A stretch of 64,000 nt of DNA from a virus (taxonomy: Duplodnaviria; Caudoviricetes). This document shows, one piece after another, positions 4,132-45,350 of this stretch. Below the pieces are notes generated by a model. It searched no databases. It saw nothing but the letters and a program-made list of their open reading frames with translations, and was not told the origin of the DNA. The stretch lies in IMG/VR virus record IMGVR_UViG_3300027286_000002; one strand, written 5' to 3'. The position numbers were made by a program, and so were the translations under genes. Numbering within the stretch: position 1 is the stretch's first letter; each line of letters opens with the position of its first letter.

Positions 4132-4184
4132 AATAAACTCTCTTTCTTTAAAACATATCTAAGAAAGAGAAAGATATAAAAACT

Positions 4185-5357
4185 TTATTTAAGATTTTTA
4201 AGTTTAGCAAGTCTTAGTTTTAGGTTAGAAGTCTTAATGGATTCACCATTGAGAATAGCTAAAAATTTATCAGCAACTTCTTTATAGGAAGGTCTAACTA
4301 GACCTAAAGTAATTGCAGTAATCATTTCAGCAAACCATTCATCATATTTTGTGCTACCATAACCTGAAGAACAATATTTAGTAGATTGTAGTGATTTTAA
4401 TTGTTCTTCAGTTAATCCAATCGAATGACCATCTGTTACACCTATAAACCAGAAAATCTTTTTTCTCTGTACTTTTTCAACATTTTCTAAAACATAATCT
4501 TGATCTTGAATTGTTGAAAAAGATGAAGAAATTGTCCATGCTGGAATATAAGTATCTTTTGGTAAAACAAAACCAATTTGAGGTTCTATATATTCACATC
4601 TATTACTTTTCCATAATTCTAAAAGTTCTTTATGTTTTTCATGTACTTCATAATCAAATTTATGTCCAAATTCATGAATCACAGTAGATACAGCCCCGGG
4701 ATTATTTAAAGATTTGGTGTAGAAAGCTATGTTTTTTTTAGTGGTATTATAAGATGCCGCCGCACCTCTTTCTGATGTCTGTACACCATATAATTCAAAA
4801 ATGTCTTTTGGTGTGCCTACATAAAGATCACCATATAATGCTTTTTTAAAATCTTTAACAGGTGAGTTCCTTATATAAGTAATTGTTTGTTTCAACACTT
4901 CTTGAAACTTATCAAGAACAGGTTTGGTTAGCTTATTCACATAAACAATATTAAAACCACCTTCTTGCTGAATAAGTTTTTCTTGATTGATCTCTTTTTG
5001 TCTTGTTTTTGAAACTGAAGATGTTTCGTCTTTCAAACTTTTAATAATATCTTTTACAACAGGCACAACTTGTTCTTTTTTTGGTAATGCACCAAAAAAA
5101 ATCTCATTCCATTCTTTTAATTGAGTGATACTTGCAGGTGGATTTTTAATTCCCAAACTATTATATGCCTTAAGAAACTTCTCAACCATACTACTTTTTC
5201 CAATATAGTTGATCAGCCAATGGTTTTGCAGAGCTTGATCCAGCTCCTCATCCCAAGATACACCTTCACCTCTTCGATCGATATACCATCTGTTTTCCAT
5301 TGCATCTAAAAGTTGTTCTGCTTTAGATAAGACCATATTTGTTTTCACGGATGCCAT
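4185..5357 (-). CDS. Zincin-type zinc metallopeptidase (paralogue 1)
   Basis: HEFGH zinc motif plus downstream YG...EWFAEM; C-terminal LKLRLAKLK peptide. Confidence 0.7.
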   Translation of the reverse strand: MASVKTNMVLSKAEQLLDAMENRWYIDRRGEGVSWDEELDQALQNHWLINYIGKSSMVEKFLKAYNSLGIKNPPASITQLKEWNEIFFGALPKKEQVVPVVKDIIKSLKDETSSVSKTRQKEINQEKLIQQEGGFNIVYVNKLTKPVLDKFQEVLKQTITYIRNSPVKDFKKALYGDLYVGTPKDIFELYGVQTSERGAAASYNTTKKNIAFYTKSLNNPGAVSTVIHEFGHKFDYEVHEKHKELLELWKSNRCEYIEPQIGFVLPKDTYIPAWTISSSFSTIQDQDYVLENVEKVQRKKIFWFIGVTDGHSIGLTEEQLKSLQSTKYCSSGYGSTKYDEWFAEMITAITLGLVRPSYKEVADKFLAILNGESIKTSNLKLRLAKLKNLK

Positions 5358-5449
5358 ATTAAAACACCTTTCTTTGTTTAATGATTTTAAACAAAGGTGT
5401 TCTTATAAAATCATTATTGATTTCAAACCAATAATGATTTTTTTGCTTT

Positions 5450-8400
5450 TTAAACAATAAAACCATGATCTAAAGATGCTTCAATAGGCTCATCTGCGAT
5501 TGATCCAAAATCCCATGTCTGTACACCTACTAATAAACCATCTGCACCAAAGACAGGTACATCACCTTCATTACTGCCTATATTAGCAAAAGCCGCCGTG
5601 CCTAAGTTTAAGGCTGTGATCAATTCATTTAAATCTATATTTGATGATGAGATACTCACAAGAGCATTAATAACATTATTCAAATTGTCATTAACAAAAG
5701 AAATCCCACTATGTGTCCCATTCTCTAAAGCTGTACCTACTGCATTCCTAGCTTGTTCATCTGTATATGTAGAAGGGAAATCACTAGATACAAATTTATT
5801 TACATTGCCATCCCATATAAGTGTCTTACCATCACCATTTAAAGTTAAATCTACATCAGATAAATCAGCAATAGCTAATTCACTATTAACAAATTGACCT
5901 GTACCATCTACTCTTAAAGTTTGACCTTCAGTTTTACTTAAAGCATTAATCGTAACATCTGTTAAATCATCTAATTGAGTTACACCACCTGCCAAATTGA
6001 TCAATGCTCTTACAAAAGAAGCATTAGCTACTTCATCACCATTTGCACCTAAATCTGTATTAACTAAAACACTTGTAGATCCTGTGAAATCCAAATCACC
6101 TGTGAAAGTTTTATTGCCTGTAATCGTTTGATCTGCATCTAGCAAGTCAATATTTGCTGAATCACTAAGTTGTTCGGATGAAAGTTGAATTGTGAGATCA
6201 ATACGATCATTTATATTGTTATTAGTAAAAGTAACACCAGCAGTATGTTCACCATTTGCTAATGCAGTACCAACTGCATTCCTAGCATCTTCATCAGTAT
6301 AGGTAGCAGGTGTATCGCTTGGAATAAAGTTAGTACCATTCCATACTAAAATTTGACCTACATCAATACCACCACTTGTATCTACATCGGATAAAGTATT
6401 AATAGAACCTAAAGCTGTTAAATTCGCACCTGAAACAGCAGGCAAACCATTTACACCAAGTTGAACTACATCACCATTATTAGTACCTACATCTAAAGTA
6501 GCACTTGTACCTAAACCTAAGATTGTAATAATAGCATTTGCATCTGCACCACCTATAATAGACCTACCAAATTCTGTGAAAGCAGTAGTAGTAAAACTAT
6601 CAATTCCATTCGCATAAATAAGAGTATCTGCACTCGTGGCAACACTAGCCAAACCTGCAAGTGTATTATCGTATGCTTGAACATCACTACCAATAGATAA
6701 ACCTAAGTTAGATCGAGCATTTGTTTTAGCAAGGTTATTTAATGCTATTTCACTAAAAGCATTTGCTACTAAAAAGACATCTTCTTCATCTAAAAGACTA
6801 GCAGTACCTAATAAATCTAAACTACTTGAATTAGCTTGAATTTGAGCATCTAATTTACCAATCGCAACATGATGACTATCTGTATTAAGGATATAATGAG
6901 TAGATGAGTAATTAGGTAAAGAACCATCTGCATTAAGACCAACAGAAGTTTCAACAGTAGATAATTCTTCATCAGTAGCTAAAAGATTAAGATCACTTAA
7001 ATCTTCAATAGATAAAGTGAAAGCGACAAATTTACCTGTGGCATCATCCCATCGTATTAATTGACCATCTAAAATACCTGCAATATTGACATCAGATAAA
7101 TCAGCAAAACTTAAAGAACCAAGACCATTAGAGATAGCACCATTTACCCATGATGTAGTAGGTACTCTAAAAGAATCATCATTTACTAATGGTACACTTG
7201 CATAAGCCTCAGCTAAATTAGATGAAGTGACAATTTGTAAAGTATCACCAGCTATTTGACCTACTACTTCTAAAGAACTTGCATTAAGTTCACCTTCAAA
7301 AGCATTTAAAAGAGCATCAAGTCTAGGTAAATTATCACTGTCTGTTAAGTCAGTAGATGCCAAAGTTAAACTAGCTTGTAAAGTAGGAACATCAATAAGA
7401 GCAGTGATATTAGAAGTATTTGTTAAAATATCACCTATATTAATGCCACCAATAGAGGTAGCAAGATTTAAGATAGATGGATCAATTGCACCTGTATTAT
7501 CAAGTAATAAAACATTGCCTGCTAAGATGCCTGCATCTCTTGTAGAAGCACTACCTAAACCTAAATTAGTTCTAGCATTAGCTTTGGCAACATTATTACC
7601 TGCAATTTCACTAAAAGCATTCGCTACTAAGAAAATATCAGTATCGTCTAAAAGACTAGCAGTACCTAAAGAATTTAAAGTGTTATTAACATTACCTAAT
7701 TCTGTATCTAAAAGAGTAAGACCTTCAGTGATAGACTCAGCAAGGTTTAAATAATTTGTATCTACAAAGGGAATGAATTGACCATTAGTATTAAGACCAA
7801 TAGCATTTTCCATTGTGTCAATTTCATCTTGTGCTTGAGCAACAGCAAGTTCAGCGGCGCCTAATAATTCCAACCATTGAGTACCATCTGAAATATAAGT
7901 TTTACTTGTACCTGTAACAATATAAACTTGACCATTATTTTCAGGAGCAGGTGCAGGTTTATCACCTTCATTAGCAACTACAGTAACAGAAGTGAAAGTG
8001 ATAGCAGGTAATTGAGATGCTGTTAATTTGCCATCAGCATTTAAAGAGGCAACACCATTAATCGCACCTAATTGAGTAGTCTTTAATACACCTGTTAAAT
8101 TGACACCTGACATTGCAGGTAGAGTGTTATTAACACTAACAAGTAAAACATTACCTGCAAGAGTACCTGCATCTCTTGTAGCAGAATTACCTAAACCTAA
8201 ATTAGTTCTAGCAGTGGCAGTGTTATTTAAATCACTAAGATTATTTGCTACAAGCAAAACATCAGTAGTATTTAAAAATGCAACAGTACCTAGACCACTA
8301 ATCATATTGGCATTGATAGCACTATTAATCCAATTATTGCCATCATACATTAAAAATTCAGTATTGACAGGATCAGTTAAGACAACATCTGCTAAATTAT

Positions 8401-11400
8401 CTATTGTATTAGTAGCAGTAGAAATCTCATTTAAGACCCATTCTGTAGTAGCAACACGAGTAGAACTATTACCTGCTAATGGACTTGTTGCACTAGCTGT
8501 ACCTAAAGAAGATGTAGTAGTGATTGTTAAGCTATTGCCTGCTAAAATACCTGAGCCTGTAATATCATGTGCATTAATATTACCTGTAGTAGTAATGCCA
8601 TGAACACCAAAAGATACTTGACCACCTAAAAGGTTAGAGATTGTACTAGCTGGCTGTAAAACAATATTACTTAAATTAGAAGTACCACTGACTTGTAAAG
8701 TACCTTCTGTTAAAACATTGCCATTTCCACTAACTGTAAATAAAGGAAATATACCATTAAACAAACTTAAGGATTGTGATCCATCACCTGCAATTTTAAT
8801 AGAACCTGTAAAGGTATTAATATTTCTACCTAATAAGGCGACATCTTGAGCCAAAGGAATATGATCATTAGCTGTTCCTATATCATAAGTAGATGCAGTA
8901 CCTAAAGAATTTTCAATATTAGAAATAGCAACATCTAAATCAGATAAAGAAGTATGATGAGAGTGTCCATTGGTAAGATAGTTATTCGTATTATAGTTAG
9001 GTAAAGATCCATCTACATTTAAACCTACAGATGATTGAGTAGTATCTAATTCGTCTTGTAAATTAGATATATCTGTTTGGATATTAGTGATATCAGTTTG
9101 AGATGAAGATAGGTTGCTGTTAATAGTATCTAATTGAGCATCGAGTTTACCAATAGCTGTGTGATGGCTATCTACATTAGCAATATAGTGAGTAGATGAG
9201 TAATTAGATTTAGTACCATTAGCATTTAAACCAACTGATGTTTCTACTGTATTGATTTCAGTTTGAGCAGATGAAAGATCAGAAGTAGTAGTATTAAGTT
9301 GAGTGTCTAGTTTACCTACTGCTACACGGATGGAATCAGCATTAAGAATATAATTTGTAGATGAGTAGTTAGGTTTAGTACCATTAGCATTTAAACCAAC
9401 AGAACTCTCAACAGTATCTAATTCGCTTTGAGCAGAAGATAAGTTATTGGTAGTAGTATTAAGTTGAGTATCAAGTTTACCTAAAGCAGAATTATGAGTA
9501 TCTGTATTTAAGATAAAATTCGTAGATGAGTAAACAGGTCTTGATCCATTAGCATTTAAACCTAAACTAGATTGAGTAGTGTCTAGTTCAGTTTGACTAG
9601 CTAGTGTATTCGCATCACTAAGATCAGAAACAACAAGAGTATGATCAACAAAAGTAGTACCATTCCATTTTAAAAATTGACCATTGACAATACCTGTAAT
9701 ATCCACATCACTAAGATCATTGATACTGCCTACTGAACTACCATCAGCAGGAATCCAATTAGTACCATTCCAAGATAAGAATTGACCATTAGCAGGTGCA
9801 TTAGTAGCAGTATCTACATCAGATAATAAATTAATAGAACCTAAAGCAGTAAGGTTTACACCTGATAAAGCAGGTAAAGTGTTATTAACAGTAAATTTTA
9901 GAACTTGATTAGCAAGAGTGCCTGTATCTAAAATAGCAGAAGTACCAAGACCTAGATTATTTCTAGCAGTAGCAAGATTATTTAAACCAGCTAGATTGCC
10001 ACTCTTTAACAAAATACTAGCAGTATCACTTAAATCAGTAGATGCTAGTTTTGCATTTACATATTGCACACCATTAAATCTTAAAGTTTGACCAATGGCT
10101 TGAGTTAAGTCATCAATCGCAACATCTGTTAATTGATCTAAAGAAGTTGCTCCTCCACCTCCTCCACCACCTTCAGCAATTCGTGCTTTAACCCAAGCAG
10201 TAGTAGCAATTTGAACACTATTGCTATTATTCGCAGGTGCAGGTGCAGTAGGCAAACCTGTAAATGCAGGACTGTTAATAGGTGCATAGATACCATTAAG
10301 ACCTTGAATATCACTAGCTTTTAAAGGTGCATTAGTCCATTGATTTGTAATCACATCATATTGGATAACATCTTTATTTTCAAGGTTTACGAAAGAAACA
10401 TCACTAAGATCAGATAAAGGACTGTTTTTAGTTAAGACATCACTTTCATTTAATGTAGATGCAGTACCTAAACCTAAATTTGATCTAGCTTGTGCAAGAT
10501 TAGTTAATCCTGATAAGTTTTCATTTTTCTTTAATAGACCATCCGTGCCTGTGAGATCAGTAAAGGCAATTTTGGCATTAACAAATTTATTGCCATCATA
10601 TCTTAAAACTTGACCAATTTGTAAAGCACCTATTTGAACATCAGTAAGATCATTTAAAGAAGTTGCTCCACCTCCTCCTCCACCTGCTTGTTGAATGACA
10701 AATCTTACCCAACCTGTAGTAGCAATCGTATTATCATTACTATTTGCCAAAGGTTCAGATGATTTAGCAGTACCTGTGAAAATAGGATTATTGATAGGTG
10801 CATAAATTCTATTAATATCTGGAATATCTGAACTTGTGATTGCACGATTAGTCCACCTGCCTGTTGCATTGTCATAACTTAATACATTTTTACTTTGAAC
10901 ATTAACAAGAGTAACATCACCTAAAGAACCAAGACCTGTACCAACAAGTAAAAAGTCATTCGCATTAGATGTAGAAGCACTACCTAAACCTAAGTTAGTT
11001 CTAGCAGTAGTAAGATTAGTTAGACCTGCTAGATTATCTGATTTTTTCATCAAGGTATTTATATCAGATAGGTTTGTAGAACTTAAAGTACTGTTAATCC
11101 ATTTGCTACCATTATATTTTAAGAAGTGATTATTTTGTAAAGCGATGCCACCTAATTGAACATCACCTAGATTACCAATAGAGAAAGGACTAAGAGAAAC
11201 AGTAGCATTAATTTTGTCTTGTGCATTTGCATTAACAAAAGAGATACCTGTATGGTTGCCTGTTTGTAAAGCAGTACCAACTGCATTTCTAGCATCTTCG
11301 TCTGTATATTGAGTTAAGGTAGTACCAATTTCACCATCAACCAAAGTGATAGGTGCTTCAGCAGAGAAAGCATCTCTTGCTCTTTGGTCTGTGAAATAAA

Positions 11401-11845
11401 GATTATTAATGCCTTCAGGAATGTCATCAGTAGAATTGATATTAGCTGGATCAACAAGACCAAGTAAATTTATTTGTGGATTAGGATCTTCAACAAGACC
11501 TTGATTAACAGGCATAGCAGTAATATAAGGTGTCCAATAGGTATTGATAGATCGTTTATAGCATTTCAATTCCATTTCAGTTTGATCATCTAAAGTGAAA
11601 TTGTAAACCAAGCTACCATGTATGTTTTCAGGTTTATAAGATTTGCCATTAATCATACCAATGGTTTTTTGAGTATCATTTGGATAAGTGAATTTAAGAC
11701 CAATAGTGATCACACCACTTGCTTTAATTTTGATTGTGTTCTTTATAGATGATGCAGGTAAAACAAAAACACTGTCTGCAAAGACTAGGTATTCGGTATT
11801 TTCTTGTGCTTGTATTTCACCACCATTTAAAACTTCAATGATCAT
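5450..11845 (-). CDS. Large repetitive fibre-like virion protein (2131 aa)
   Basis: Repeated LxDLxDV, NLxxLxNxATARxNLGLG, TYTDEDARNAVGTAL and YSSTxYI...AIGKLD modules; rich in G/N/T/S. Confidence 0.7.
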   Translation of the reverse strand: MIIEVLNGGEIQAQENTEYLVFADSVFVLPASSIKNTIKIKASGVITIGLKFTYPNDTQKTIGMINGKSYKPENIHGSLVYNFTLDDQTEMELKCYKRSINTYWTPYITAMPVNQGLVEDPNPQINLLGLVDPANINSTDDIPEGINNLYFTDQRARDAFSAEAPITLVDGEIGTTLTQYTDEDARNAVGTALQTGNHTGISFVNANAQDKINATVSLSPFSIGNLGDVQLGGIALQNNHFLKYNGSKWINSTLSSTNLSDINTLMKKSDNLAGLTNLTTARTNLGLGSASTSNANDFLLVGTGLGSLGDVTLVNVQSKNVLSYDNATGRWTNRAITSSDIPDINRIYAPINNPIFTGTAKSSEPLANSNDNTIATTGWVRFVIQQAGGGGGGATSLNDLTDVQIGALQIGQVLRYDGNKFVNAKIAFTDLTGTDGLLKKNENLSGLTNLAQARSNLGLGTASTLNESDVLTKNSPLSDLSDVSFVNLENKDVIQYDVITNQWTNAPLKASDIQGLNGIYAPINSPAFTGLPTAPAPANNSNSVQIATTAWVKARIAEGGGGGGGATSLDQLTDVAIDDLTQAIGQTLRFNGVQYVNAKLASTDLSDTASILLKSGNLAGLNNLATARNNLGLGTSAILDTGTLANQVLKFTVNNTLPALSGVNLTALGSINLLSDVDTATNAPANGQFLSWNGTNWIPADGSSVGSINDLSDVDITGIVNGQFLKWNGTTFVDHTLVVSDLSDANTLASQTELDTTQSSLGLNANGSRPVYSSTNFILNTDTHNSALGKLDTQLNTTTNNLSSAQSELDTVESSVGLNANGTKPNYSSTNYILNADSIRVAVGKLDTQLNTTTSDLSSAQTEINTVETSVGLNANGTKSNYSSTHYIANVDSHHTAIGKLDAQLDTINSNLSSSQTDITNIQTDISNLQDELDTTQSSVGLNVDGSLPNYNTNNYLTNGHSHHTSLSDLDVAISNIENSLGTASTYDIGTANDHIPLAQDVALLGRNINTFTGSIKIAGDGSQSLSLFNGIFPLFTVSGNGNVLTEGTLQVSGTSNLSNIVLQPASTISNLLGGQVSFGVHGITTTGNINAHDITGSGILAGNSLTITTTSSLGTASATSPLAGNSSTRVATTEWVLNEISTATNTIDNLADVVLTDPVNTEFLMYDGNNWINSAINANMISGLGTVAFLNTTDVLLVANNLSDLNNTATARTNLGLGNSATRDAGTLAGNVLLVSVNNTLPAMSGVNLTGVLKTTQLGAINGVASLNADGKLTASQLPAITFTSVTVVANEGDKPAPAPENNGQVYIVTGTSKTYISDGTQWLELLGAAELAVAQAQDEIDTMENAIGLNTNGQFIPFVDTNYLNLAESITEGLTLLDTELGNVNNTLNSLGTASLLDDTDIFLVANAFSEIAGNNVAKANARTNLGLGSASTRDAGILAGNVLLLDNTGAIDPSILNLATSIGGINIGDILTNTSNITALIDVPTLQASLTLASTDLTDSDNLPRLDALLNAFEGELNASSLEVVGQIAGDTLQIVTSSNLAEAYASVPLVNDDSFRVPTTSWVNGAISNGLGSLSFADLSDVNIAGILDGQLIRWDDATGKFVAFTLSIEDLSDLNLLATDEELSTVETSVGLNADGSLPNYSSTHYILNTDSHHVAIGKLDAQIQANSSSLDLLGTASLLDEEDVFLVANAFSEIALNNLAKTNARSNLGLSIGSDVQAYDNTLAGLASVATSADTLIYANGIDSFTTTAFTEFGRSIIGGADANAIITILGLGTSATLDVGTNNGDVVQLGVNGLPAVSGANLTALGSINTLSDVDTSGGIDVGQILVWNGTNFIPSDTPATYTDEDARNAVGTALANGEHTAGVTFTNNNINDRIDLTIQLSSEQLSDSANIDLLDADQTITGNKTFTGDLDFTGSTSVLVNTDLGANGDEVANASFVRALINLAGGVTQLDDLTDVTINALSKTEGQTLRVDGTGQFVNSELAIADLSDVDLTLNGDGKTLIWDGNVNKFVSSDFPSTYTDEQARNAVGTALENGTHSGISFVNDNLNNVINALVSISSSNIDLNELITALNLGTAAFANIGSNEGDVPVFGADGLLVGVQTWDFGSIADEPIEASLDHGFIV

Positions 11846-11896
11846 TCTATGCTCCTCTGTGATTATATAAAGAGCAAAAATGATTTAATAAATATG

Positions 11897-13309: not shown

Positions 13310-14617
13310 TTATTTAGATTCTTGATTTACAAGTTGCATAAACTTATCTGCTATAATTTTTTGAGAAGGTTTCACTTTACCTAAAACAATAAGAGTAAAC
13401 ATTTCTGCAAAAAATTCTTGTACATTTTTTGCTCCATATTGAGATGGACAAGTTATTAGTTTAAGAATGTCTTTCTTTTCAAATTCTTTAATATCACCTG
13501 TAGAGTTAGTGTATGTATATGTATTTTTAAAAATATTTGTTAAAACATAATCATCAGATGACATTCTAACAGTCCACCAATTTTCCCTTAAATTGGATAG
13601 TGGATCACCTATTTTAGGTAATTGGTCTAAATAACATTGCTCTTTAGATTTGATTGCCTCTTGATATAAATCCTTAAAGTCAAAATTATAATATCCACCT
13701 TTAATAAATCGAGAATGATACCTGTGACCAAATTCATGAATCAAAGTAATAAAAGGATCTTTATCTTCTGTATCACTCTTACCTTCTTTATTAATAAAAT
13801 AAGTGATTTTGTCCTGTGACCAATAAAGAGCAATTACTCTTCTGCCTGAGTATGATAAACCTGCTTTAGATAAGTCAGGTTTTGTACCTATTAAGATTTC
13901 AGAATTTGTTAACACTTTTTTAAATGGTGAGTTTTTAATATAATTTATCGTTTTGTAGATAGCACCACGATATTCCAAAACAACACTTTTTGTCACAGGT
14001 GAAAGAAAGGTAGAAGTGATATTTTCATTTTGAATTACTGTTGCTAATTCTTCTGTATTCAAACCTTCAAAAGTTGTTGCAGGTAATTCAACACTTTCTA
14101 GAGTTGTTGCAGGTGTTGAATTACCTGCTAGAGTAGTATCTTCAACTTTAATTTCACTAATTGCTTTTTGACTAGCTGAAAAATAATCAAAAAATTTTGA
14201 GTATGGTGTTCCATTTTCTCTAATCTTTCGCATTTGATCAGAGATCATATTCTTTAATTGAATATGACTTGTATCAGGAATAGTTTTAGTACCATGCTCT
14301 AAAGACAAAAGATATCTTTTAAAATTTACAAGTGGTCGCAATGGTTTTTTTAAAAAAAGGTTTTGTTGATGTGCATCTATAAATGCTATGATTGCATCTG
14401 TTACAGTCATATTTGATTGCATTAGCAGATCATAAAATTCAGTAATTTCTAAAAATCTTTTGCCATTCATAATGATGTTTTGTACATCAGGTGTATCTAG
14501 ATAAAAATTACTCATGGGTATATTTGATCGTACAGTTCTTATTTCAGCAATAAGTTCCATTATTTCGCTTAACATTGGATCAATATACTGCTCTTTGTAC
14601 TCAGCCTGTGTTGTCAT
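13310..14617 (-). CDS. Zincin-type zinc metallopeptidase (paralogue 3)
   Basis: LIHEFGHRYH ... CPSQYGAKNVQEFFAEM. Confidence 0.7.
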   Translation of the reverse strand: MTTQAEYKEQYIDPMLSEIMELIAEIRTVRSNIPMSNFYLDTPDVQNIIMNGKRFLEITEFYDLLMQSNMTVTDAIIAFIDAHQQNLFLKKPLRPLVNFKRYLLSLEHGTKTIPDTSHIQLKNMISDQMRKIRENGTPYSKFFDYFSASQKAISEIKVEDTTLAGNSTPATTLESVELPATTFEGLNTEELATVIQNENITSTFLSPVTKSVVLEYRGAIYKTINYIKNSPFKKVLTNSEILIGTKPDLSKAGLSYSGRRVIALYWSQDKITYFINKEGKSDTEDKDPFITLIHEFGHRYHSRFIKGGYYNFDFKDLYQEAIKSKEQCYLDQLPKIGDPLSNLRENWWTVRMSSDDYVLTNIFKNTYTYTNSTGDIKEFEKKDILKLITCPSQYGAKNVQEFFAEMFTLIVLGKVKPSQKIIADKFMQLVNQESK

Positions 14618-37286: not shown

Positions 37287-38399
37287 ATGAATAAAACTCT
37301 ACTCTTAAAACTCTATCTTGAAAAACCTGCCACTGATATTGCCAAAGAACATAATCTTAAACCTGTTCAAATTCAAAAACTCTTAAGACTTTATAATATA
37401 CCTAAACCTTATCGTAATAAAGATGGCAAAGCACTTGATGTAAATCACATCCTTGATCTCTACCATAACCAAAAGAAATCTATTAAAGAAATCAGCTCTA
37501 TGCTCAACTCTACTTTAGATATGATCACTAATCTCTTATATGACAGAACACCTACACCTAAACCTACCTGCGACCAGCTTAAAGCCTGCTTAAACCTTTC
37601 CAAAAGACAAATTGCTCTCAAATTCAATCTTAAAGAATATGATGTGCATAGACTATTACTTGAATATAAACTTAGCTACAATCCTTTTAACCTGTCTAAA
37701 GAAGAATTACAGAAAGAATACCAATCACAAACCATTTCACAGATAGCTAAAAAATATCATGTAGATGCTATCTATGTTTCTGTTAAACTTAAAGAATATG
37801 GCATCCTTAATGAAATCAATATAGAAGAACTTAAAAGACTTTATTGTGATGAAAGAAAAACCATTAAAGAAATCATTTATTTGTTAAATTCATCTGAAAC
37901 TACTTTGTGGCGACTTATTAAAAAACATAAACTGCAAAGACCTTTCAATCCTAATCCACATGAATTTTTTAAGCTGTGGCATGACAAGACCAAAACAGTA
38001 GATGAGAATATACGATATATGGCAGAATATTATAAAGTGTCTATAGGTATTATTCGCTTGACTGCTAGAAAATTAAATATCAGTAAAAAGACCACACCTA
38101 TCAAAATTAAATATACACAAGAGCAATTACAGGAACTTTATGACAAGCATGACTTATTTGGTTTATCTGTTATTCTTAAAATGAATGTTGCTAATGTAAA
38201 ACGAGCATTAGTAAGACATGGCATCACTATTAAAAAGCCACCTGTTAAACCAATGGATTTAGATCGGATTACACAGCTATATAAGACAAAATATTTAGAT
38301 TTAAAAAACTTGTATGCTATTCAAGAAATTGCAAAAGAACTAGATGTTGCACCTACAACACTTCACAGGTTTATTCGTTCACATAAAATTACAAGATAG
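37287..38399 (+). CDS. Tandem multi-HTH protein
   Basis: About 7 HTH-like repeats; paralogue of 40012-41154. Confidence 0.65.
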   Translation: MNKTLLLKLYLEKPATDIAKEHNLKPVQIQKLLRLYNIPKPYRNKDGKALDVNHILDLYHNQKKSIKEISSMLNSTLDMITNLLYDRTPTPKPTCDQLKACLNLSKRQIALKFNLKEYDVHRLLLEYKLSYNPFNLSKEELQKEYQSQTISQIAKKYHVDAIYVSVKLKEYGILNEINIEELKRLYCDERKTIKEIIYLLNSSETTLWRLIKKHKLQRPFNPNPHEFFKLWHDKTKTVDENIRYMAEYYKVSIGIIRLTARKLNISKKTTPIKIKYTQEQLQELYDKHDLFGLSVILKMNVANVKRALVRHGITIKKPPVKPMDLDRITQLYKTKYLDLKNLYAIQEIAKELDVAPTTLHRFIRSHKITR

Positions 38400-38812: not shown

Positions 38813-39031
38813 ATGTTAGAAATGCTTATTGACTACACAGACCACTTATCATTCATGGTAGATGAAACCTACTTAGATTTTCCCAACCACATGATTGCAT
38901 TTGAAGAAGATCTTTATGGCAATCTTTATCTTATTCAAAAGGATTGGATCTTTAGCAAAACACCTGTAGAATTTGAAGAAGCAGTAGAAATTGTTAAGAA
39001 CTTGCCTGAACCTATTTATTATCTAGATTAG
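38813..39031 (+). CDS. Small acidic hypothetical protein
   Basis: AAAGGA SD. Confidence 0.55.
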   Translation: MLEMLIDYTDHLSFMVDETYLDFPNHMIAFEEDLYGNLYLIQKDWIFSKTPVEFEEAVEIVKNLPEPIYYLD

Positions 39032-39248
39032 GTGCAAGGTAAAGATCACTTGAATTCTGCCACTCTGATTTATGTAAAGATTTAGCTATACTTAAAGATA
39101 GTGAACATCTAAAATATTCAGGATATACATAAAAACCTCTTGTACCACCATCTAATCTACAAGACCTTGAACTTATAGAAGACAAAGCAAATTTAAAAGT
39201 CTTAGAATTTAAAACTTCATCTGATGATATTTCTAACCAATAGATCAT
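39012..39248 (-). CDS. Putative stand-alone MTase target-recognition module C4
   Basis: IYWLEISSDEV...GFYVYPEYFRCSLSLSIAKSLHKSEWQNSSDLYLAP. Confidence 0.6.
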   Translation of the reverse strand: MIYWLEISSDEVLNSKTFKFALSSISSRSCRLDGGTRGFYVYPEYFRCSLSLSIAKSLHKSEWQNSSDLYLAPNLDNK

Positions 39249-39249
39249 T

Positions 39250-39489
39250 TTATATTTCACCACACTTTCCTATATACCTATCTGAATTATTTATCCAAGT
39301 AGGTTTAGACAACACTCTAGCACCAAATAAAGCAATTGCTAGTCTAAAGTTATCTGTGTATAGGTAATGTCCTATTCCTTTTATTGCCAGCTGTTTTGTT
39401 GGTGAGGTGGATGATGTTATATAAACACCTTGTAATGTATGACATACATCATTACTGTCATTGCTAAAGAAACCATAATGACTACTCAT
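39250..39489 (-). CDS. Putative stand-alone MTase target-recognition module C3
   Basis: HYGFF...NDV...GHYLYTDNFRLAIALFGARVLSKPTWINNSDRYIG. Confidence 0.65.
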   Translation of the reverse strand: MSSHYGFFSNDSNDVCHTLQGVYITSSTSPTKQLAIKGIGHYLYTDNFRLAIALFGARVLSKPTWINNSDRYIGKCGEI

Positions 39490-39719
39490 TTATCTTTTCC
39501 TATATACCTATCTTGATCGTTTATCCAATTATGTTTGGATAAAACCCTTGCACTATATAAAGCAATACAATGCCTTATGTTGCTTTGGTGTATATATGTT
39601 CCCATTCCTTTAATATCTCTGATAGTACCTGCTGTTGTAGATGATGCTAGATAAACAAGTTGACCAGAAAACTGTACATTATTTCCATATGATGCAAGGA
39701 AGCCATAGTGATTACTCAT
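39486..39719 (-). CDS. Putative stand-alone MTase target-recognition module C2
   Basis: HYGFL...NNV...GTYIHQSNIRHCIALYSARVLSKHNWINDQDRYIG. Confidence 0.65.
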   Translation of the reverse strand: MSNHYGFLASYGNNVQFSGQLVYLASSTTAGTIRDIKGMGTYIHQSNIRHCIALYSARVLSKHNWINDQDRYIGKDK

Positions 39720-39956
39720 TTATATTTCTTTTCCTATGTAAACATCATTGTTATTTAACCCTGATCTCTTAATAAGAGATCTTGCACCAAACAGTCCTAT
39801 GGACAACCTAAAGTTATCTTTATACATATATGTACCAAAACCTTTAATATCTTTAGTAGTGGCTGGTGAAGTAGATGATGTTAGATACGCCCCAGATGCA
39901 GAATGACATACATCATTACATCCATTGTGAAAAAAACCATAAGGTGTTTTAGTCAT
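39720..39956 (-). CDS. Putative stand-alone MTase target-recognition module C1
   Basis: PYGFF...NDV...GTYMYKDNFRLSIGLFGARSLIKRSGLNNNDVYIG. Confidence 0.65.
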   Translation of the reverse strand: MTKTPYGFFHNGCNDVCHSASGAYLTSSTSPATTKDIKGFGTYMYKDNFRLSIGLFGARSLIKRSGLNNNDVYIGKEI

Positions 39957-40011
39957 GTTAATTCCTTTTCAATATCTTATAAGATTTCTACAAGAAAGGA
40001 CTGCAAAAAAA

Positions 40012-41154
40012 ATGACAAAAGAATTATTAAATGATCTTATCCAAACCATGTCACATACTGAAATGGCATCTCATCTTAATATCTCGCTTAACCATTTAAG
40101 AAGACTATTAAGAGTTCACAATATCAAAAAACCTTTAAAAGATAAAGCAGGCAATCCTATTAATCTTAAATATGTTGAAACCTTGTATGATGCAGGACAT
40201 CCTGTTTCTAAAATCCATATTATGGTTAATGCTTCTTTTGATGCCATCTCTAACTACCTCAACCTAAATAAAATTCGTATTAGTAAAAAACTACTACAAC
40301 ACTACTTTATTGATGAAAAACTTTCCCTTACACAAATAGCTGATCGTTTTGGATCATCTCTTTCTACTATTAAAAAATACCTACTACTCTATGAAATCAT
40401 AAAACCTGATATTCATATTGAGAAACACGATTTAGAATCACATCCTAATATACTTGTTTCCGAACTAGCTATTCTCTTTAACACAGATAAAGAAACGATT
40501 AGCTACTTTCTTAAAAAATATGACTTGTCTAAAAAAGGCAAAGTCAATCAAGAAAAACTACAACAGCTTTATTGTGTTGAACATAAATCACTACAAGAGA
40601 TTGCAGACCATTTTAAAATCTCACATATAACTCTTTGGCGAAGGATTAGACAATATAAACTCACTAGAGAATTTAATCCTGATATAGACCTCTTTGAGCA
40701 AAAACTCTCTGAATATAGAGACCTACCTATGCACAAGGCTAAACAAAACCTTGCGAAATATTATAATGTTTCTGTTGGTGAAATTGAAATCTTTTTTAAA
40801 AAGCACAATCTACTTAAAAAAAGAAAAAGAAGAAAGGTTACCTACACAAATGACCAGCTAAGAAAGATGTATGAAAGACTTGGGATTAAAGGTCTTATGA
40901 AGAAACTAGATATGACTGAATATAATGTTAAAAGAGCATTAAAGAGAAATGGTATCTTGCCATATAGCAAACCAAATAAAAGACTTGTCTTATCTATTCC
41001 TAAAGACCATATCAAATATCTCTACCATAAGAAATATGAACATTATAATGCACCTAGTGCAAGACAAGCAATGGCAGATGAATTAGGTTTATCTTTATAT
41101 GCAGTTACAAGGTATATTCAAATGTATAATCTAAACAGACCAAGAATTTTCTAA
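40012..41154 (+). CDS. Tandem multi-HTH protein
   Basis: About 7 HTH-like repeats; paralogue of 37287-38399; start after AAAGGA. Confidence 0.65.
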   Translation: MTKELLNDLIQTMSHTEMASHLNISLNHLRRLLRVHNIKKPLKDKAGNPINLKYVETLYDAGHPVSKIHIMVNASFDAISNYLNLNKIRISKKLLQHYFIDEKLSLTQIADRFGSSLSTIKKYLLLYEIIKPDIHIEKHDLESHPNILVSELAILFNTDKETISYFLKKYDLSKKGKVNQEKLQQLYCVEHKSLQEIADHFKISHITLWRRIRQYKLTREFNPDIDLFEQKLSEYRDLPMHKAKQNLAKYYNVSVGEIEIFFKKHNLLKKRKRRKVTYTNDQLRKMYERLGIKGLMKKLDMTEYNVKRALKRNGILPYSKPNKRLVLSIPKDHIKYLYHKKYEHYNAPSARQAMADELGLSLYAVTRYIQMYNLNRPRIF

Positions 41155-41167
41155 AAGGACACTTCTT

Positions 41168-41440
41168 ATGAAACCATTAAATCAAAATGTGATTATCAAA
41201 CCATCACCTGTAGAACCACAATCCCAATCAGGTTTATTTATTCCAGATACTGCTAAACAAGACCAATCTATTGCTACTGTGATTGCAATAGGCACAGGTT
41301 ATCCAAATGGCAAACCTTTAACAGTAAAGGTTGGCGATAAGGTAGTTTATTCCAAGTATGCAGGTGTAGAACTTAATTATGAAGATCAAGAGTATTTGGT
41401 CTTATCTGAATCGGATCTTTTGGCTGTGATTAAAAATTAA
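41168..41440 (+). CDS. groES: Co-chaperonin GroES
   Basis: MKPLNQNVII...SGLFIPDTAK...VIAIGTG...VKVGDKVVYSKYAGVE...YLVLSESDLLAVI. Confidence 0.93.
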   Translation: MKPLNQNVIIKPSPVEPQSQSGLFIPDTAKQDQSIATVIAIGTGYPNGKPLTVKVGDKVVYSKYAGVELNYEDQEYLVLSESDLLAVIKN

Positions 41441-41494
41441 TATTTTATTTATATGCAAGTCTTTATAAAACAACTTTGAAAAGGTAAAGATAAA

Positions 41495-41758
41495 ATGAGA
41501 AGATTTGCAAATACAGAATCATCAGAAATGCAAGCTAAAGTAATCCAAAAAATTCTTGAAAACCAAATTGCAGATAACTTTTATATAAATGATGAAATGA
41601 AAAAAAAAGTTAAACAGCTTTTAGCAACTATGGATATGGAAGCTATCGATGAAGATCTTATGGATGATATTGATTATGCTTTTGATGCTTATGCTAAAGC
41701 CATGCAGAATTTCTTTTATTATGCAGAGAAATTAGAAGATCTTATTAAACTTGTTTAA
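41495..41758 (+). CDS. Small acidic hypothetical protein
   Basis: AAAGG SD. Confidence 0.55.
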   Translation: MRRFANTESSEMQAKVIQKILENQIADNFYINDEMKKKVKQLLATMDMEAIDEDLMDDIDYAFDAYAKAMQNFFYYAEKLEDLIKLV

Positions 41759-41937
41759 AAAACCATTTTAGAAAAGAATGGTTTAAACCAAGTTAGCATT
41801 ATTGTACTTCCTATTCCACAACCTAATGCAGTTCCTATAAAGCACAGACAAAAAGTTAAGATTGCTTTATTTCTTATCTTATTATCACTCGCATCTACAT
41901 ATCCTGTTCTCTTTAAGAAAAACTCTAACTCATTCAT
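41755..41937 (-). CDS. Small membrane protein ending module block B
   Basis: ATGA-coupled to module B4; one TM segment. Confidence 0.5.
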   Translation of the reverse strand: MNELEFFLKRTGYVDASDNKIRNKAILTFCLCFIGTALGCGIGSTIMLTWFKPFFSKMVF

Positions 41938-42158
41938 TTATCTTCCTTACATGGTGCTAAATACCTATTAGGATTTAATATCCAATTTCCTCGTCCAATA
42001 ACTTCTCTATTTCTTGCAGTGGACAAGGCTACAAACACTCTAAAATTAATAGGAAAGATTTCAATACCTGATTTACTTGATGCTATGCTAGATAAGGTAA
42101 AAACACTATGCTCGTTTCTAGTAACTTCATTACTACTTGTTTCAAACCAACAGATCAT
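41934..42158 (-). CDS. Putative stand-alone MTase target-recognition module B4
   Basis: ICWFETSSNEV...GIEIFPINFRVFVALSTAR...GNWILNPNRYLAP. Confidence 0.65.
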   Translation of the reverse strand: MICWFETSSNEVTRNEHSVFTLSSIASSKSGIEIFPINFRVFVALSTARNREVIGRGNWILNPNRYLAPCKEDK

Positions 42159-42364
42159 TTTTCTTCATCCTTATTAGGTGCTAGATACACATTTTCATAT
42201 TTTATCCAATCATCTTGTATAATTCTTTTTGCCACAAATAAAGATATTCTTTTCTTATCATATCCATTTAAAAAAGCACTATGTCCTATTTTAGGTATGC
42301 TACTTAATACAGTAGTGCCTTGTGCATACAAATGCACAATATTACTATCAAATACAAAATACAC
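42155..42364 (-). CDS. Putative stand-alone MTase target-recognition module B3
   Basis: YFVFDSNIV...RISLFVAKRIIQDDWIKYENVYLAP (GTG start). Confidence 0.65.
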   Translation of the reverse strand: MYFVFDSNIVHLYAQGTTVLSSIPKIGHSAFLNGYDKKRISLFVAKRIIQDDWIKYENVYLAPNKDEEK

Positions 42365-42366
42365 TT

Positions 42367-42582
42367 TTAGTTATCCTTATTAGGTTTTAAAAACCTGTCT
42401 TGATCATTTATCCTAGTATGTTTAGGTAAAATTCGAGCATTAAATAATCCTACACTTTCTCTAAAATTACTGTCCTGTACATATAAGCCTCCACTATGAG
42501 AATAAAATTTACAGGATTGCAAATAAACAAGTTGCTGTCCTTGCCATACATTATTTGAATCACTTATGAAATAAAATCTCAT
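42367..42582 (-). CDS. Putative stand-alone MTase target-recognition module B2
   Basis: FYFISDSNNV...GLYVQDSNFRESVGLFNARILPKHTRINDQDRFLKP. Confidence 0.65.
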   Translation of the reverse strand: MRFYFISDSNNVWQGQQLVYLQSCKFYSHSGGLYVQDSNFRESVGLFNARILPKHTRINDQDRFLKPNKDN

Positions 42583-42583
42583 A

Positions 42584-42796
42584 TCATTTCTTTCTTAAAG
42601 CTAGATAAACATCATCTCTATTTATAAAGCTGGCTGTACTCACTAACCTTCTACTCATATATAAACAGACAGATCTTCTTATATTAAAAGGCTCTACATA
42701 TAGACCATGATTTACAGATGATACACCACTTAATAAAAATACATCCTGTATGTTTTTTCCTATGTTGTTATTATTGTTCTCAAACCAATAAACCAT
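42584..42796 (-). CDS. Putative stand-alone MTase target-recognition module B1
   Basis: VYWFENNNNNI...HGLYVEPFNIRRSVCLYMSRRLV...FINRDDVYLA. Confidence 0.65.
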   Translation of the reverse strand: MVYWFENNNNNIGKNIQDVFLLSGVSSVNHGLYVEPFNIRRSVCLYMSRRLVSTASFINRDDVYLALRKK

Positions 42797-42862
42797 AAGC
42801 TATCTTCCTTATATATAGAAATCGTGATTTTTTACCTATATTGTAAAAACATAGGTAAAAAC

Positions 42863-43102
42863 TTATATTGTTTTACCTATATAGACATCGTTACTGTTTA
42901 TCCAATTTGATTTTATTAATGATCTAACACTATATAAAGTAATACATCTTCTCATATTATTCTTATACATATATAAACCATTTCCCTGTACCTCTCCCCT
43001 ATTCATATGACCCGGGGATGTGAAAGATGTCATATAAGCACCTTGAGTAGCTCCTGTAATGTTATTTTCTTTAGATGTGAAAAAACCATAGTGATTACTC
43101 AT
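42863..43102 (-). CDS. Putative stand-alone MTase target-recognition module A4
   Basis: HYGFF...NNI...GLYMYKNNMRRCITLYSVRSLIKSNWINSNDVYIG. Confidence 0.65.
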   Translation of the reverse strand: MSNHYGFFTSKENNITGATQGAYMTSFTSPGHMNRGEVQGNGLYMYKNNMRRCITLYSVRSLIKSNWINSNDVYIGKTI

Positions 43103-43340
43103 TTATCTTATCCTCTCTTCCCATGTACCTATCTTGGTCGTTTATCCATGTGTGTTTTGATAACACCCTTGCACCATATAAAGCAATGACTTGCCGTATG
43201 TTACTTTGGTGTATATATGTTCCAAATCCTTTTAAGTGATGTTTTCCACCATCGGATGTTGAGGACATTAAATAAGCACCTTGAACAGACCACTGTACAT
43301 TATTACCTTCACTGATAAAGAAACCATAGTGATTACTCAT
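43095..43340 (-). CDS. Putative stand-alone MTase target-recognition module A3
   Basis: HYGFF...NNV...GTYIHQSNIRQVIALYGARVLSKHTWINDQDRYMG. Confidence 0.65.
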   Translation of the reverse strand: MSNHYGFFISEGNNVQWSVQGAYLMSSTSDGGKHHLKGFGTYIHQSNIRQVIALYGARVLSKHTWINDQDRYMGREDKINE

Positions 43341-43573
43341 CTTATCTTATCCTTACCTATATAGGCATCATTACTGTTTATCCATTGTGATTTTATAAGT
43401 GTCTTTACTACAAATAAACTCACTGTCTGTCTTATATTATTTTTCTCTACATAATAACCAGCTTGCCCCATTAAACCTATACCACATCTAGGATAAGACC
43501 TTGTACTTAATAAATAACAATCCTGCATACCATGCTGTATGTCATTCCCATTACTATTAAAATAACAAATCAT
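43337..43573 (-). CDS. Putative stand-alone MTase target-recognition module A2
   Basis: CYFNSNGNDI...GYYVEKNNIRQTVSLFVVKTLIKSQWINSNDAYIG. Confidence 0.65.
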   Translation of the reverse strand: MICYFNSNGNDIQHGMQDCYLLSTRSYPRCGIGLMGQAGYYVEKNNIRQTVSLFVVKTLIKSQWINSNDAYIGKDKIR

Positions 43574-43575
43574 TC

Positions 43576-43791
43576 TTATCTCTTTGGTGCTAAATAAACA
43601 TCATCATGCTTTTCCCATGATGATTTAATAACTGATCTACATACAAATAAAGATATTCTTTTTCTGTCATATCCTCTTAAATATGCACAGTGTCCTATCT
43701 TTGGCTCACCACTAAAAAGTAAAACCCAAGAAGTATTCGTCCTCACTATATTACTATCAAATACAAAATACATTCTATTACTTCGGATCAT
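43576..43791 (-). CDS. Putative stand-alone MTase target-recognition module A1
   Basis: ATGA overlap with the MTase stop; YFVFDSNIV...RISLFVCRSVIKSSWEKHDDVYLAP. Confidence 0.65.
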   Translation of the reverse strand: MIRSNRMYFVFDSNIVRTNTSWVLLFSGEPKIGHCAYLRGYDRKRISLFVCRSVIKSSWEKHDDVYLAPKR

Positions 43792-45350
43792 TCTTTTAAA
43801 AATCCATATTCATATACACCCGGTCTTAACTTATCACCTAAAACCTTATGCAATTCTTTTAACTTCTTAAAATCTGCATTATACTCTTTTTCCCAAAATC
43901 CCTTTAACTGATACCACCCACAATCCCAACATAATAACTGCAACTCAGGATTCGCTTTAGCATATGCCTCTCTTGTTGCCAATGACTTTAACCATAATTC
44001 TGTAGCATGAACTAATAATGCCACTGCCTCTTCACTTAATGTCAATTCTGCTATTAATGTAGACACATAAGATTCTTCATAATACTTCTCATAATCTGCT
44101 AACATCAATGCACTATGCTCTTCTATTGCACCACGAATGCCATATCTCTCTAACCAAAAGAAATGATTCTTAATTTGCCAAATCTCACCACCCCATGATA
44201 CATCTCTCATAGATGTACAATTATTCTTCGTTTCAAAAATAGAATAAATATGTCCATCATCCACCCACTGCTCATAGCCTGTCTTTACTTCACTTGATGT
44301 ATGCTTATATTTATTCCCTTCGTCTAACCACCTCTGTGTAAATGGTATCGATGGATATGCAATATATTCAATTTCTTTTTCAGGTGCTTTTTTAATTGGA
44401 CCCGTCTTTTCCCTTTCCTTGATTTTAAGACCACTTGTCATAATTGGATATTCATAGGTTTCCATATCTTTAATAGGTTCTCTAACCCACTCACTAGCTG
44501 GCATATGGTTATCGCAATTATAAATCTGTTTCCATCCATAATGACTTGCATCAAGATTTTTAATTTCTAACTTTGGATCTGTCTTAGTTTTCCCTTCACT
44601 CCAAATCGTAAAGCCTACTCCCCATTCAGATGAAACACCTGCAAATGCACTCGCATTAAAGAAAAATCCTGCTTTAAATTCAAAGGCATTGTAATACCAT
44701 TCTCTAAATTTCTTTGCTGTTTCCTGAATCATAAACTTGATTGGTGAAAAGAAACATAAACTGACTTTCTTATATCCAAAATACTTTGCCTGTCTTGCAC
44801 ATTCAAAAATAAATTGAAAATATAAATTAGAACGACAAGCACCTAAATGCAACATCTTTTCTTTAACAAGTGTATTACTCACACCTTCTTTATTTTCTTC
44901 ATCATCTGCAAGTGTACCTGCCGCCGCATATGGTGGATTAATAAAGAACACAAGTCTTTTACCTGCCTTTGCTCCTGCATATAACTGATCTTGCACTGCA
45001 TCTGGAATAACATTGCTTTCATCACCTAAGCTAAACAAACATCCATCTGTATCTGTTGGATTTAAGAAATCATACTTAAAAGCATTTTTAAATCCTTGCT
45101 TATGTAGTAAATCCACTTCAGGTTGCTCTAATGTAGATAAGATTAAATTCTTAAAATCATATTCTCTAATCAAATTGCCTGAGCCTGAACAACAATCCCA
45201 TACAAGACTTTCTTCTTTCCAAGTTTCACCTAAGACATTACTTGTTAAGGTATGTGCTTGATCCACCCATAAAGCTGGTGTAAAAAATGCACCTTGTCTT
45301 GTTCGGATTTCATTCTCTAAGGTTTCATCATATCTGTGATGTTCACTCAT
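43788..45350 (-). CDS. Gamma-class N6-adenine DNA methyltransferase (Type IIG-related, no nuclease domain) with an apparent internal deletion of the target-recognition segment
   Basis: GAFFTP (motif X), VWDCCSGSGNL (motif I), FINPPY (motif IV), long helical C-terminus ending YEYGFLKE. Confidence 0.85.
   Translation of the reverse strand: MSEHHRYDETLENEIRTRQGAFFTPALWVDQAHTLTSNVLGETWKEESLVWDCCSGSGNLIREYDFKNLILSTLEQPEVDLLHKQGFKNAFKYDFLNPTDTDGCLFSLGDESNVIPDAVQDQLYAGAKAGKRLVFFINPPYAAAGTLADDEENKEGVSNTLVKEKMLHLGACRSNLYFQFIFECARQAKYFGYKKVSLCFFSPIKFMIQETAKKFREWYYNAFEFKAGFFFNASAFAGVSSEWGVGFTIWSEGKTKTDPKLEIKNLDASHYGWKQIYNCDNHMPASEWVREPIKDMETYEYPIMTSGLKIKEREKTGPIKKAPEKEIEYIAYPSIPFTQRWLDEGNKYKHTSSEVKTGYEQWVDDGHIYSIFETKNNCTSMRDVSWGGEIWQIKNHFFWLERYGIRGAIEEHSALMLADYEKYYEESYVSTLIAELTLSEEAVALLVHATELWLKSLATREAYAKANPELQLLCWDCGWYQLKGFWEKEYNADFKKLKELHKVLGDKLRPGVYEYGFLKE

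Follow-up and report, generated by a model that had tools for sequence, protein, structure and literature searches.

A phage locus with a DNA methylase gene and twelve small paralogous genes

The stretch of DNA analysed here, 64,000 nucleotides of IMG/VR virus record IMGVR_UViG_3300027286_000002 (Caudoviricetes; hereafter the window), is phage DNA, with genes for tail proteins, tail fibres and a GroES homologue and a GC content of around 31%. An earlier reading made from the sequence alone had singled out in it a 520-amino-acid (aa) N6-adenine DNA methyltransferase (MTase) with the motifs GAFFTP, WDCCSGSG and NPPY and no nuclease domain, followed by 12 paralogous open reading frames (ORFs), each with its own start, most of them coupled and preceded by Shine–Dalgarno (SD)-like sequences. 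It had proposed that the small proteins are free-standing target-recognition modules, any one of which completes the MTase in trans. The ORF list and a hidden Markov model (HMM) of the full-length MTase family, comprising 832 positions and run on all ORFs of the window, agree with this description of the genes: the MTase ORF lies on the minus strand, and 12 minus-strand ORFs encoding 69–83 aa lie downstream of it (Table 1). Their products, W01 to W12, align as one family with a mean column identity of 42% and anchors at N14, S27, R43, L48 and Y66, and the paralogy is visible in the DNA too, tandem paralogues being 60–85% similar. W07 is a W01-like subtype without the N-x-R anchor.

The genes are tightly packed. 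ATGA overlaps of start and stop codons join the MTase to W01, W02 to W03, W07 to W08 and W08 to a 60-aa predicted membrane ORF, most of the remaining module junctions are gaps of 0–2 nucleotides or short overlaps, and SD-like purine-rich runs precede nearly all starts. Promoter and terminator scans gave no signal above shuffled sequences, and the locus shows no poly-G tracts; the sole sizeable gap within the first block of modules, between W04 and W05, contains an inverted repeat that the terminator scan did not pick up. All 12 modules were found where the sequence-only reading had placed them, but they do not form one contiguous array, being split into blocks of eight and four (41934–43791 and 39012–39956, minus strand) by the coupled membrane ORF and then by a 2-kb insert on the plus strand (39955–41758) that carries a 399-aa helix-turn-helix (HTH)-repeat/HNH-like protein, GroES and an 87-aa ORF.

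Table 1 Features of the methylase–module locus, with the counterparts of individual modules (amino acid identity; dN/dS, ratio of non-synonymous to synonymous substitution rates).
Feature	Coordinates	Strand	Basis	Counterpart
Predicted catalytic scaffold, gamma-class N6-adenine DNA MTase, 520 aa	43788..45350	-	ORF, motifs, family HMM	
Linker in place of module core, MTase residues ~313–358	44277..44414	-	alignment, HMM, AlphaFold2	
Module W01, 71 aa; start overlaps MTase stop (ATGA)	43576..43791	-	module alignment, family HMM	L001_13, 83%; 0.16
Module W02, 78 aa	43337..43573	-	module alignment, family HMM	orthologues in L001, L004, L006, 77–89%; 0.17–0.20
Module W03, 81 aa; used for complex prediction	43095..43340	-	alignment, family HMM, predicted complex	L006_03, 89–90%
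Module W04, 79 aa	42863..43102	-	module alignment, family HMM	L001_07, 73%; 0.13
Intergenic gap W04/W05, 66 nucleotides, with inverted repeat (hairpin)	42797..42862	-	sequence reading	
Module W05, 70 aa	42584..42796	-	module alignment, family HMM	none close in four relatives compared (best 41–44%)
Module W06, 71 aa	42367..42582	-	module alignment, family HMM	L001_12, 75%; 0.26
Module W07, 69 aa, GTG start	42155..42364	-	module alignment, family HMM	free-standing P0135 (representative library), 98.6%
Module W08, 74 aa	41934..42158	-	module alignment, family HMM	L001_14, L005_03, 74–77%; 0.14–0.19
Predicted membrane ORF, 60 aa, not a module	41755..41937	-	ATGA-coupled to end of first block	
Module W09, 78 aa, opens second block	39720..39956	-	module alignment, family HMM	
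Module W10, 77 aa	39486..39719	-	module alignment, family HMM	L006_04, 72%; 0.12
Module W11, 79 aa	39250..39489	-	module alignment, family HMM	L006_01, 77%; 0.19
Module W12, 83 aa from GTG; 78 aa from ATG at 39248	39012..39263	-	alignment, family HMM	L001_06, 84%; 0.23

The scaffold resembles gamma-class Type IIG-like methylases

The motifs of the MTase follow the order X (FxTP), I (D/E-x-x-x-G-x-G) and IV (NPPY), with GAFFTP at residues 20–25, WDCCSGSGN at 51–59 and NPPY at 138–141, all invariant across 47 homologues; NPPY points to an amino-methyltransferase, and the PCQ and ENV motifs of C5 enzymes are not those found here. A search of 5.8 billion proteins returned around 330 homologues. 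Twelve of these are close relatives of 510–557 aa that are 67–91% identical to the window MTase, hundreds are proteins of roughly 810–860 aa that are 35–40% identical across 98% of the query, and a few have 520–600 aa. The long forms (about 830 aa) carry an extra N-terminal domain of around 260 aa with a D...ExK pattern and are encoded as single genes of about 820 aa by bacteria and archaea, among them Clostridium, Treponema, Gastranaerophilales and metagenome-assembled genomes (MAGs) of several phyla. The window MTase begins at position 262 of the family HMM, without this nuclease-like domain, and the HMM found no D...ExK-like domain elsewhere among the ORFs of the window. In a complete 316-kb relative (G001, IMGVR_UViG_3300046779_001841), the N-terminal D...ExK nuclease-like domain is encoded by itself and at a distance from the MTase, in a 341-aa ORF (43239–43769, minus strand) that matches family-profile positions 6–189.

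No significant match in Pfam, PHROG, NCBIfam, PADLOC or the PDB sequences was found for the window MTase, the modules or the full-length homologues (which included P0020, P0057, P0118 and P0074), the sole curated-model trace being a ‘faint’ PF02384 match on the homologue P0121, and a tblastn search of the window MTase against 50,697 GenBank phage records returned no match. Fold comparison, done on the 521-aa homologue P0118 (41% identical to the window MTase) rather than on the window MTase itself, matched its AlphaFold2 model (predicted local distance difference test score, pLDDT, 86.6) to DrdV (Z 18.9), LlaGI (17.3), MmeI (16.5), M.TaqI (16.4), M.BseCI (16.4) and CamA (15.7). The closest AFDB cluster is labelled as an Eco57I restriction–modification (RM) methylase-domain protein (template-modelling score 0.91). 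Because curated models fail to match, the structural matches are to these enzymes and the long forms have an additional N-terminal domain, the family is placed as an unmodelled branch of gamma-class Type IIG-like enzymes, with the window protein as its methylase-only form, of predicted N6-methyladenine (m6A) activity.

The small proteins match a segment missing from the methylase

Between the conserved flanks PIMTSGLKIK and GYEQWVDD, the window MTase has around 46 residues in our alignment, compared with around 88 in its homologues, and phage-type proteins in general are about 40 residues shorter between PxM(S/T)SGLK(V/I)K and GYEQWVDD. The family HMM aligned to MTase residues 8–317 (HMM 262–579) and 339–519 (HMM 637–831), skipping HMM positions 580–636 and leaving residues 318–338 unaligned, whereas all 12 modules matched it at positions ~583–652. 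When a profile of the 12 modules was aligned by hhalign with 32 full-length homologues, it matched template columns 598–664 of 886 with a probability of 99.1% and an E-value of 1.3e-18; these columns correspond to residues 310–379 of P0118. The same nested pattern of MTase and modules was found in the complete 316-kb relative. Three short strands and one helix make up the segment in the AlphaFold2 model of P0118, and the window MTase modelled alone has a pLDDT below 50 at residues 323–342 and 346–352 and almost no secondary structure there.

At the level of alignment, these comparisons demonstrate that the modules are homologous to, and exactly nested in, the gap of the MTase. The sequence-only reading had held that the MTase is shorter than its homologues between the flanks and not colinear with them, and that the small proteins align inside full-length homologues, and each of these statements stood, the columns missing from the MTase being those that match the modules. 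Its further view, that the linker keeps only possible remnants of the segment, needs amending: the core is missing, but both edges (EYIAY and W341-x6-Y348) are retained and are conserved in close relatives (P0001–P0012). Both edge elements also occur in every module; in the scaffold W-x6-Y is followed by HT, and EYIAY resembles the inter-module linker and first strand of P0123, a relative with four modules in one chain. The retained edges possibly serve as placeholders.

The same segment is hypervariable and mosaic in single-chain relatives

The module segment is the highest-entropy stretch of the family, at 2.0–2.4 bits against 0.3–1.9 elsewhere. Among 222 full-length homologues, pairs with 80–90% identical catalytic domains had a mean identity of 55% in the N-terminal half of the module (family-HMM positions ~583–622), compared with 77–79% in its C-terminal half and the C-terminal domain. 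Mosaic pairs, such as P0040/P0049 and P0013/P0026, were also present, with identities in the catalytic domain, C-terminal domain and module N-terminal half of 84, 91 and 25%, of 91, 91 and 38%, and of 81, 95 and 23%. That the segment is hypervariable and mosaic in enzymes carrying it in cis is thus established by comparison of the aligned proteins, and the mosaic pairs show the pattern expected of target-recognition domain (TRD) swapping.

VIA-align superposed the P0118 model through the segment on M.TaqI (model residues 13–377 on 21–402) and over its full length on M.BseCI and on CamA (17–575), the TRD of which spans residues 320–577 (PMC8187626). In these superpositions the segment falls in the structural equivalent of the TRDs of CamA, M.BseCI and M.TaqI, an equivalence that holds at the domain level only because it is based on alignment ranges.

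Module types are conserved and appear to be exchanged between phages

When 43 modules from five phages were grouped at 70% identity, they formed 29 types, and the best 150 metagenome representatives included around 100 clusters of free-standing sequences. Positions 9–39 of the module differ between types (by up to 3.6 bits) and are conserved within a type, and positions 41–64 vary within types too. Orthologous modules of different phages (Table 1) had dN/dS values of 0.12–0.26, compared with 0.13 for the MTase, which indicates that the module types are under purifying selection.

Types are arranged in different orders in different phages, and some occur in one phage only. Two types are 89–90% identical between the window and the related locus L006 (synonymous divergence, dS, 0.25–0.30), whereas the MTases of the two are only 74% identical with saturated dS, and this disparity suggests that modules have been exchanged between phages.

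A module is predicted to dock in a conserved pocket of the scaffold

In line with the proposed completion in trans, structure prediction paired the window MTase with W03, giving interaction scores from aligned errors (ipSAE) of 0.90, 0.90 and 0.89, compared with 0.00 for the best of three controls. Of 80 solved complexes, 58 attained this ipSAE mark, as did two of 110 mismatched pairs, a calibration that holds only roughly with self-made alignments such as ours. The predicted complex has around 210 confident contacts and buries nearly the entire W03 against scaffold residues 203–210, 230–244, 263–325, 359–381, 393–397, 428–432 and 505–519, including the family-invariant W288, Y359, W362, N376, N377, T379, N395, Y428, L508, V512, F517 and L518. 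Nine of 13 type-defining positions were among the 13 W03 residues not named as scaffold contacts (Fisher p 3.7e-6), residues left unnamed being uncertain rather than demonstrated to be free. The model supports docking of the module on the scaffold.

Gapped methylases co-occur with free modules

A profile search of 1.84 billion representatives yielded 400 module matches, most of them free-standing proteins of 65–85 aa and the remainder internal to methylases. Some chains carry modules in tandem, with five in P0121, four in P0123, three in P0122 and two in P0127, P0018, P0022, P0212, P0199 and L090. P0121 (L009 698–3712; 1,004 aa) is circularly permuted, with a C-terminal helical domain, the catalytic domain and then five tandem repeats of around 110 aa, each consisting of an upstream hairpin and a module, and its gene adjoins a terminase-like gene. 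Splits into two genes just before the module recur as well (L008, L099, L100, L102, L103, L106 and L110), giving a nuclease-like and catalytic protein of about 500 aa followed by a protein of about 300 aa with the module and C-terminal domain; stand-alone C-terminal halves are present in AFDB.

We scanned 111 loci for gapped MTases and free modules. Free modules accompany the gapped MTase at each of the nine loci that include downstream sequence, numbering from 2 to 14: the window has 12, L001 14, L002 at least 6, L003 at least 2, L004 at least 9, L005 3–4, L006 at least 6 and L038 7, and in L112 five small ORFs lie downstream of a 510-aa gene. By contrast, none of the approximately 95 loci encoding an MTase with a cis module had a free module within 6–10 kb. 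The complete 316-kb relative, with just one gapped MTase, has around 12 modules spread over three sites. Across the scanned loci, then, the co-occurrence of gapped MTases with free modules is strict.

The highest identities of window modules to cis modules are only 35–44%. A tree of 130 modules (60 cis and 70 free) required three changes between free and cis labels, and a tree constrained to a single clade of free modules had a higher likelihood (approximately unbiased (AU) test, p 0.92). Because the alignment has only 70 columns and resolves poorly, these results suggest only weakly that free modules arose by one excision and radiated inside phages rather than by repeated acquisition of TRDs from hosts. 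A recent origin of the modules in captured host TRDs was considered and dropped, given the best cis identity and the compatibility of the tree with a single origin.

A probable split, multispecific adenine methylase

We favour, as the probable explanation, a split multispecific phage adenine MTase in which one scaffold is served by exchangeable specificity modules. The 520-aa protein would supply the S-adenosylmethionine-binding and catalytic domain together with most of the C-terminal target-recognition region, from which a hypervariable core of around 57 positions has been deleted, a disordered linker taking its place. Each of the 12 co-transcribed and translationally coupled mini-genes would encode a different version of this core. 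The conserved C-terminal half of a module (N-x-R...L-F/Y-x-A-R...W-I-N-x-x-D-x-Y) would dock in the conserved pocket of the scaffold and leave the type-specific N-terminal half free to read DNA, so that, with one module per scaffold molecule at a time, the cell would contain a mixture of holoenzymes with different recognition sequences. The phage genome would then receive m6A at many motifs and be protected from many restriction systems. Completion of the scaffold by the modules in trans, as the sequence-only reading had it, is supported by our results; binding itself, activity that depends on a module, a motif of its own for each module and an anti-restriction role are what we infer from them.

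Several points weigh against this explanation. Because all gapped MTases form one clade (67–91% identical), their co-occurrence with free modules appears to be one evolutionary event and not a set of independent replications. Binding comes from one structure-prediction method, and the alignments supplied to it included full-length homologues, so the score may in part be owed to a single fold divided between two chains; only indirectly does the model place the type-specific surface towards DNA. Twelve modules competing for one scaffold would leave each holoenzyme with a small share of the pool, the EYIAY and W-x6-Y copies kept in the MTase are redundant with those of the modules, and a variable region of around 35 residues may tune only part of the recognition sequence, in which case the distinct motifs could number well below 12.

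Of the alternatives, the one that survives best has the modules complete the MTase fold in trans without setting its specificity, as isoforms that stabilise, time or regulate a methylase with a single specificity or none, for instance in particular hosts or conditions. It fits the predicted docking and the disorder of the gap without a module, and the MTase retains most of its C-terminal domain, a possible site of the main DNA contacts. Yet it leaves unaccounted for the 12 co-expressed versions, each type conserved across phages, the avoidance of the docking surface by the variable positions and the swap-prone hypervariability of the same segment in cis, and we consider it unlikely. Quite unlikely, too, is an MTase that works alone with its own or a relaxed specificity, beside mini-proteins that act independently, for example as small DNA-binding proteins derived from TRDs: although the cis segment is lost, the residues with which the scaffold contacts the module do not vary in the family, the conserved half of each module agrees with the cis consensus for the part packed against the scaffold, the loci examined contain no free modules without a gapped MTase, and an excised sub-domain of 70 aa is unlikely to fold by itself. 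The intact catalytic motifs and the location of some modules of relatives far from the MTase gene (the three sites of the 316-kb genome) speak for such independence.

The modules could also be decoys or dominant-negative inhibitors that compete for the docking pocket of host Type IIG-like enzymes of the same family, especially two-gene or multi-module ones, given that bacterial and archaeal homologues of about 830 aa combine a D...ExK nuclease-like domain with a single cis module and that split forms exist. A covalently attached cis module should, however, outcompete a free one, the precise gap in the phage’s own MTase is left unaccounted for, the identity between window and cis modules is as low as noted above, and the free modules would be one radiation and not copies of host modules, all of which makes decoys very improbable. 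Finally, unexpressed cassettes or decaying duplicates for recombinational switching of the MTase segment, to which the tandem paralogy in the DNA and shuffled order would be suited, were rejected as hardly credible on account of the start codon, SD-like run and coupled junctions of each copy and the low dN/dS, with no inserted cassette in any gapped MTase of the nine loci and no long identical recombination repeats flanking the gap.

The proposed concept joins two known kinds of enzyme, phage methylases with several specificities and methylases whose specificity lies in a separate subunit. Bacillus phages SPR, phi3T and rho11s encode multispecific C5-cytosine MTases (as relayed in PMC12707154). 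Like them, the window would have one phage catalytic core serving several short, interchangeable target-recognising units with a protective role, here 12 homologous units to one core. The layout of the Bacillus-phage enzymes is that of the relatives P0123, P0122 and P0121, their adenine-methylase counterparts with 3–5 units per chain. The Bacillus-phage enzymes are C5 enzymes with all TRDs in one polypeptide, whereas the window has an N6-adenine MTase (NPPY) with no cis unit and 12 separate polypeptides. The sequence-only reading had drawn this contrast, and it applies to the architecture of the window but not to the wider family, in which relatives carry 2–5 modules per polypeptide. Multispecific Bacillus-phage C5 MTases are reportedly treated by Trautner et al. 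1996 (EMBO J 15:1434).

In Type I and Type IIB systems (HsdM/HsdS; BcgI and BsaXI, RM and S), as proposed for the window, specificity is set by a polypeptide separate from the gamma-class adenine methylase with which it assembles. The catalytic subunits there can be directed to other targets by alternative S subunits; those of the HsdS type have about 400 aa, two TRDs and conserved helical, coiled-coil spacers and bind two M subunits. The window modules differ from HsdS (Pfam Methylase_S) in having 69–83 aa and no Pfam match and in being homologous to a stretch within a single-chain enzyme, and they differ from switched HsdS in that all 12 are apparently co-expressed and replace an internal sub-domain of a monomer-type TRD. 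Type IIG, IIL and ISP enzymes and orphan MTases (DrdV, MmeI, BpuSI, LlaGI/LlaBIII, M.TaqI, M.BseCI and CamA) resemble the window family in motif order, NPPY and a downstream TRD, and the homologues of about 830 aa have, as MmeI-type enzymes do, an N-terminal D...ExK domain; Type IIG and IIL enzymes feature a fused nuclease domain, unlike the window MTase. To our knowledge, the TRD of the known Type IIG, IIL, ISP and orphan gamma-class enzymes is always in cis and single, and none has free-standing TRD fragments. M.AquI and M.EcoHK31I are C5 enzymes made of two polypeptides split near the variable region, which must assemble for activity. The two-gene forms in the window family (L008, L099, L100, L102 and L103) are similar to them; in contrast to the window with its 12 modules, M.AquI and M.EcoHK31I have exactly one partner and no choice of specificity.

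The family has no characterised member, and the open-access literature that we searched yielded no description of free-standing TRD fragments or arrays for a gamma-class adenine methylase. The locus may amount to a natural plug-and-play MTase with an evolving library of DNA-reading subunits of around 75 residues, each giving a different m6A motif and traded faster than the scaffold evolves, by which a jumbo phage pre-empts many restriction systems; this larger claim could, in our judgement, go either way. If true, it would be a third way to many specificities, beside chains with TRDs in tandem and S subunits switched by recombination, and no smaller detachable specificity unit would be known, here one that serves a monomer-type adenine methylase. 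It would also explain how very large phages broadly exposed to restriction systems protect themselves with one enzyme, define the specificity element of a large, uncharacterised Type IIG-like family (Clostridium, Treponema, Gastranaerophilales and archaeal MAGs) and, with a 75-residue subunit to swap in place of re-engineering an entire enzyme, lend itself as a small natural platform for programmable adenine methylation of DNA. Module repertoires, which differ and are shuffled among phages with 70–90% identical scaffolds, would form a readable record of the arms race against host restriction.

Neighbouring genes and base composition

The 60-aa membrane ORF that closes the first block did not match the module HMM. 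In L001 a 114-aa orthologue with an extra internal segment occupies the same place (13436–13780), and the L006 array contains a 115-aa protein with multiple transmembrane segments (11517–11864) that looks unrelated to it. The 276-aa gene upstream of the MTase was considered as an obligate partner and dropped, as L004, L005 and L006 do not keep it in that position.

The 399-aa protein of the insert (39955–41154, plus strand) and a 370-aa protein encoded at 37287–38399 (plus strand) are paralogues built of repeated HTH units, with PHROG matches to HNH endonuclease and DNA-binding families. In L001 an opposite-strand gene for a 378-aa HTH/NUMOD1-like protein breaks the array at the same relative place as the 399-aa gene does in the window. 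These HTH-repeat proteins may be encoded by homing-type mobile genes that move module blocks. The GroES co-chaperonin homologue (41168–41440, plus strand; phrog_3188, E 6e-23) lies inside the insert that splits the array.

Other DNA methylase genes stand near the gapped MTase in related phages: L004 has three PF00145 C5 methylases in a methylase island around it (1–9913), L006 has two Dam-like methylases and one C5 methylase nearby (449–3323), and L005 has an N6_N4 methylase within the module array (2944–3837). Such neighbours fit an anti-restriction role. Finally, GCNGC is strongly depleted in the window (positions 1–64000), with six sites compared with 52 ± 6.5 expected from shuffled sequences; all six are GCSGC, GCWGC being absent from the whole window, and the depletion looks like restriction-site avoidance.

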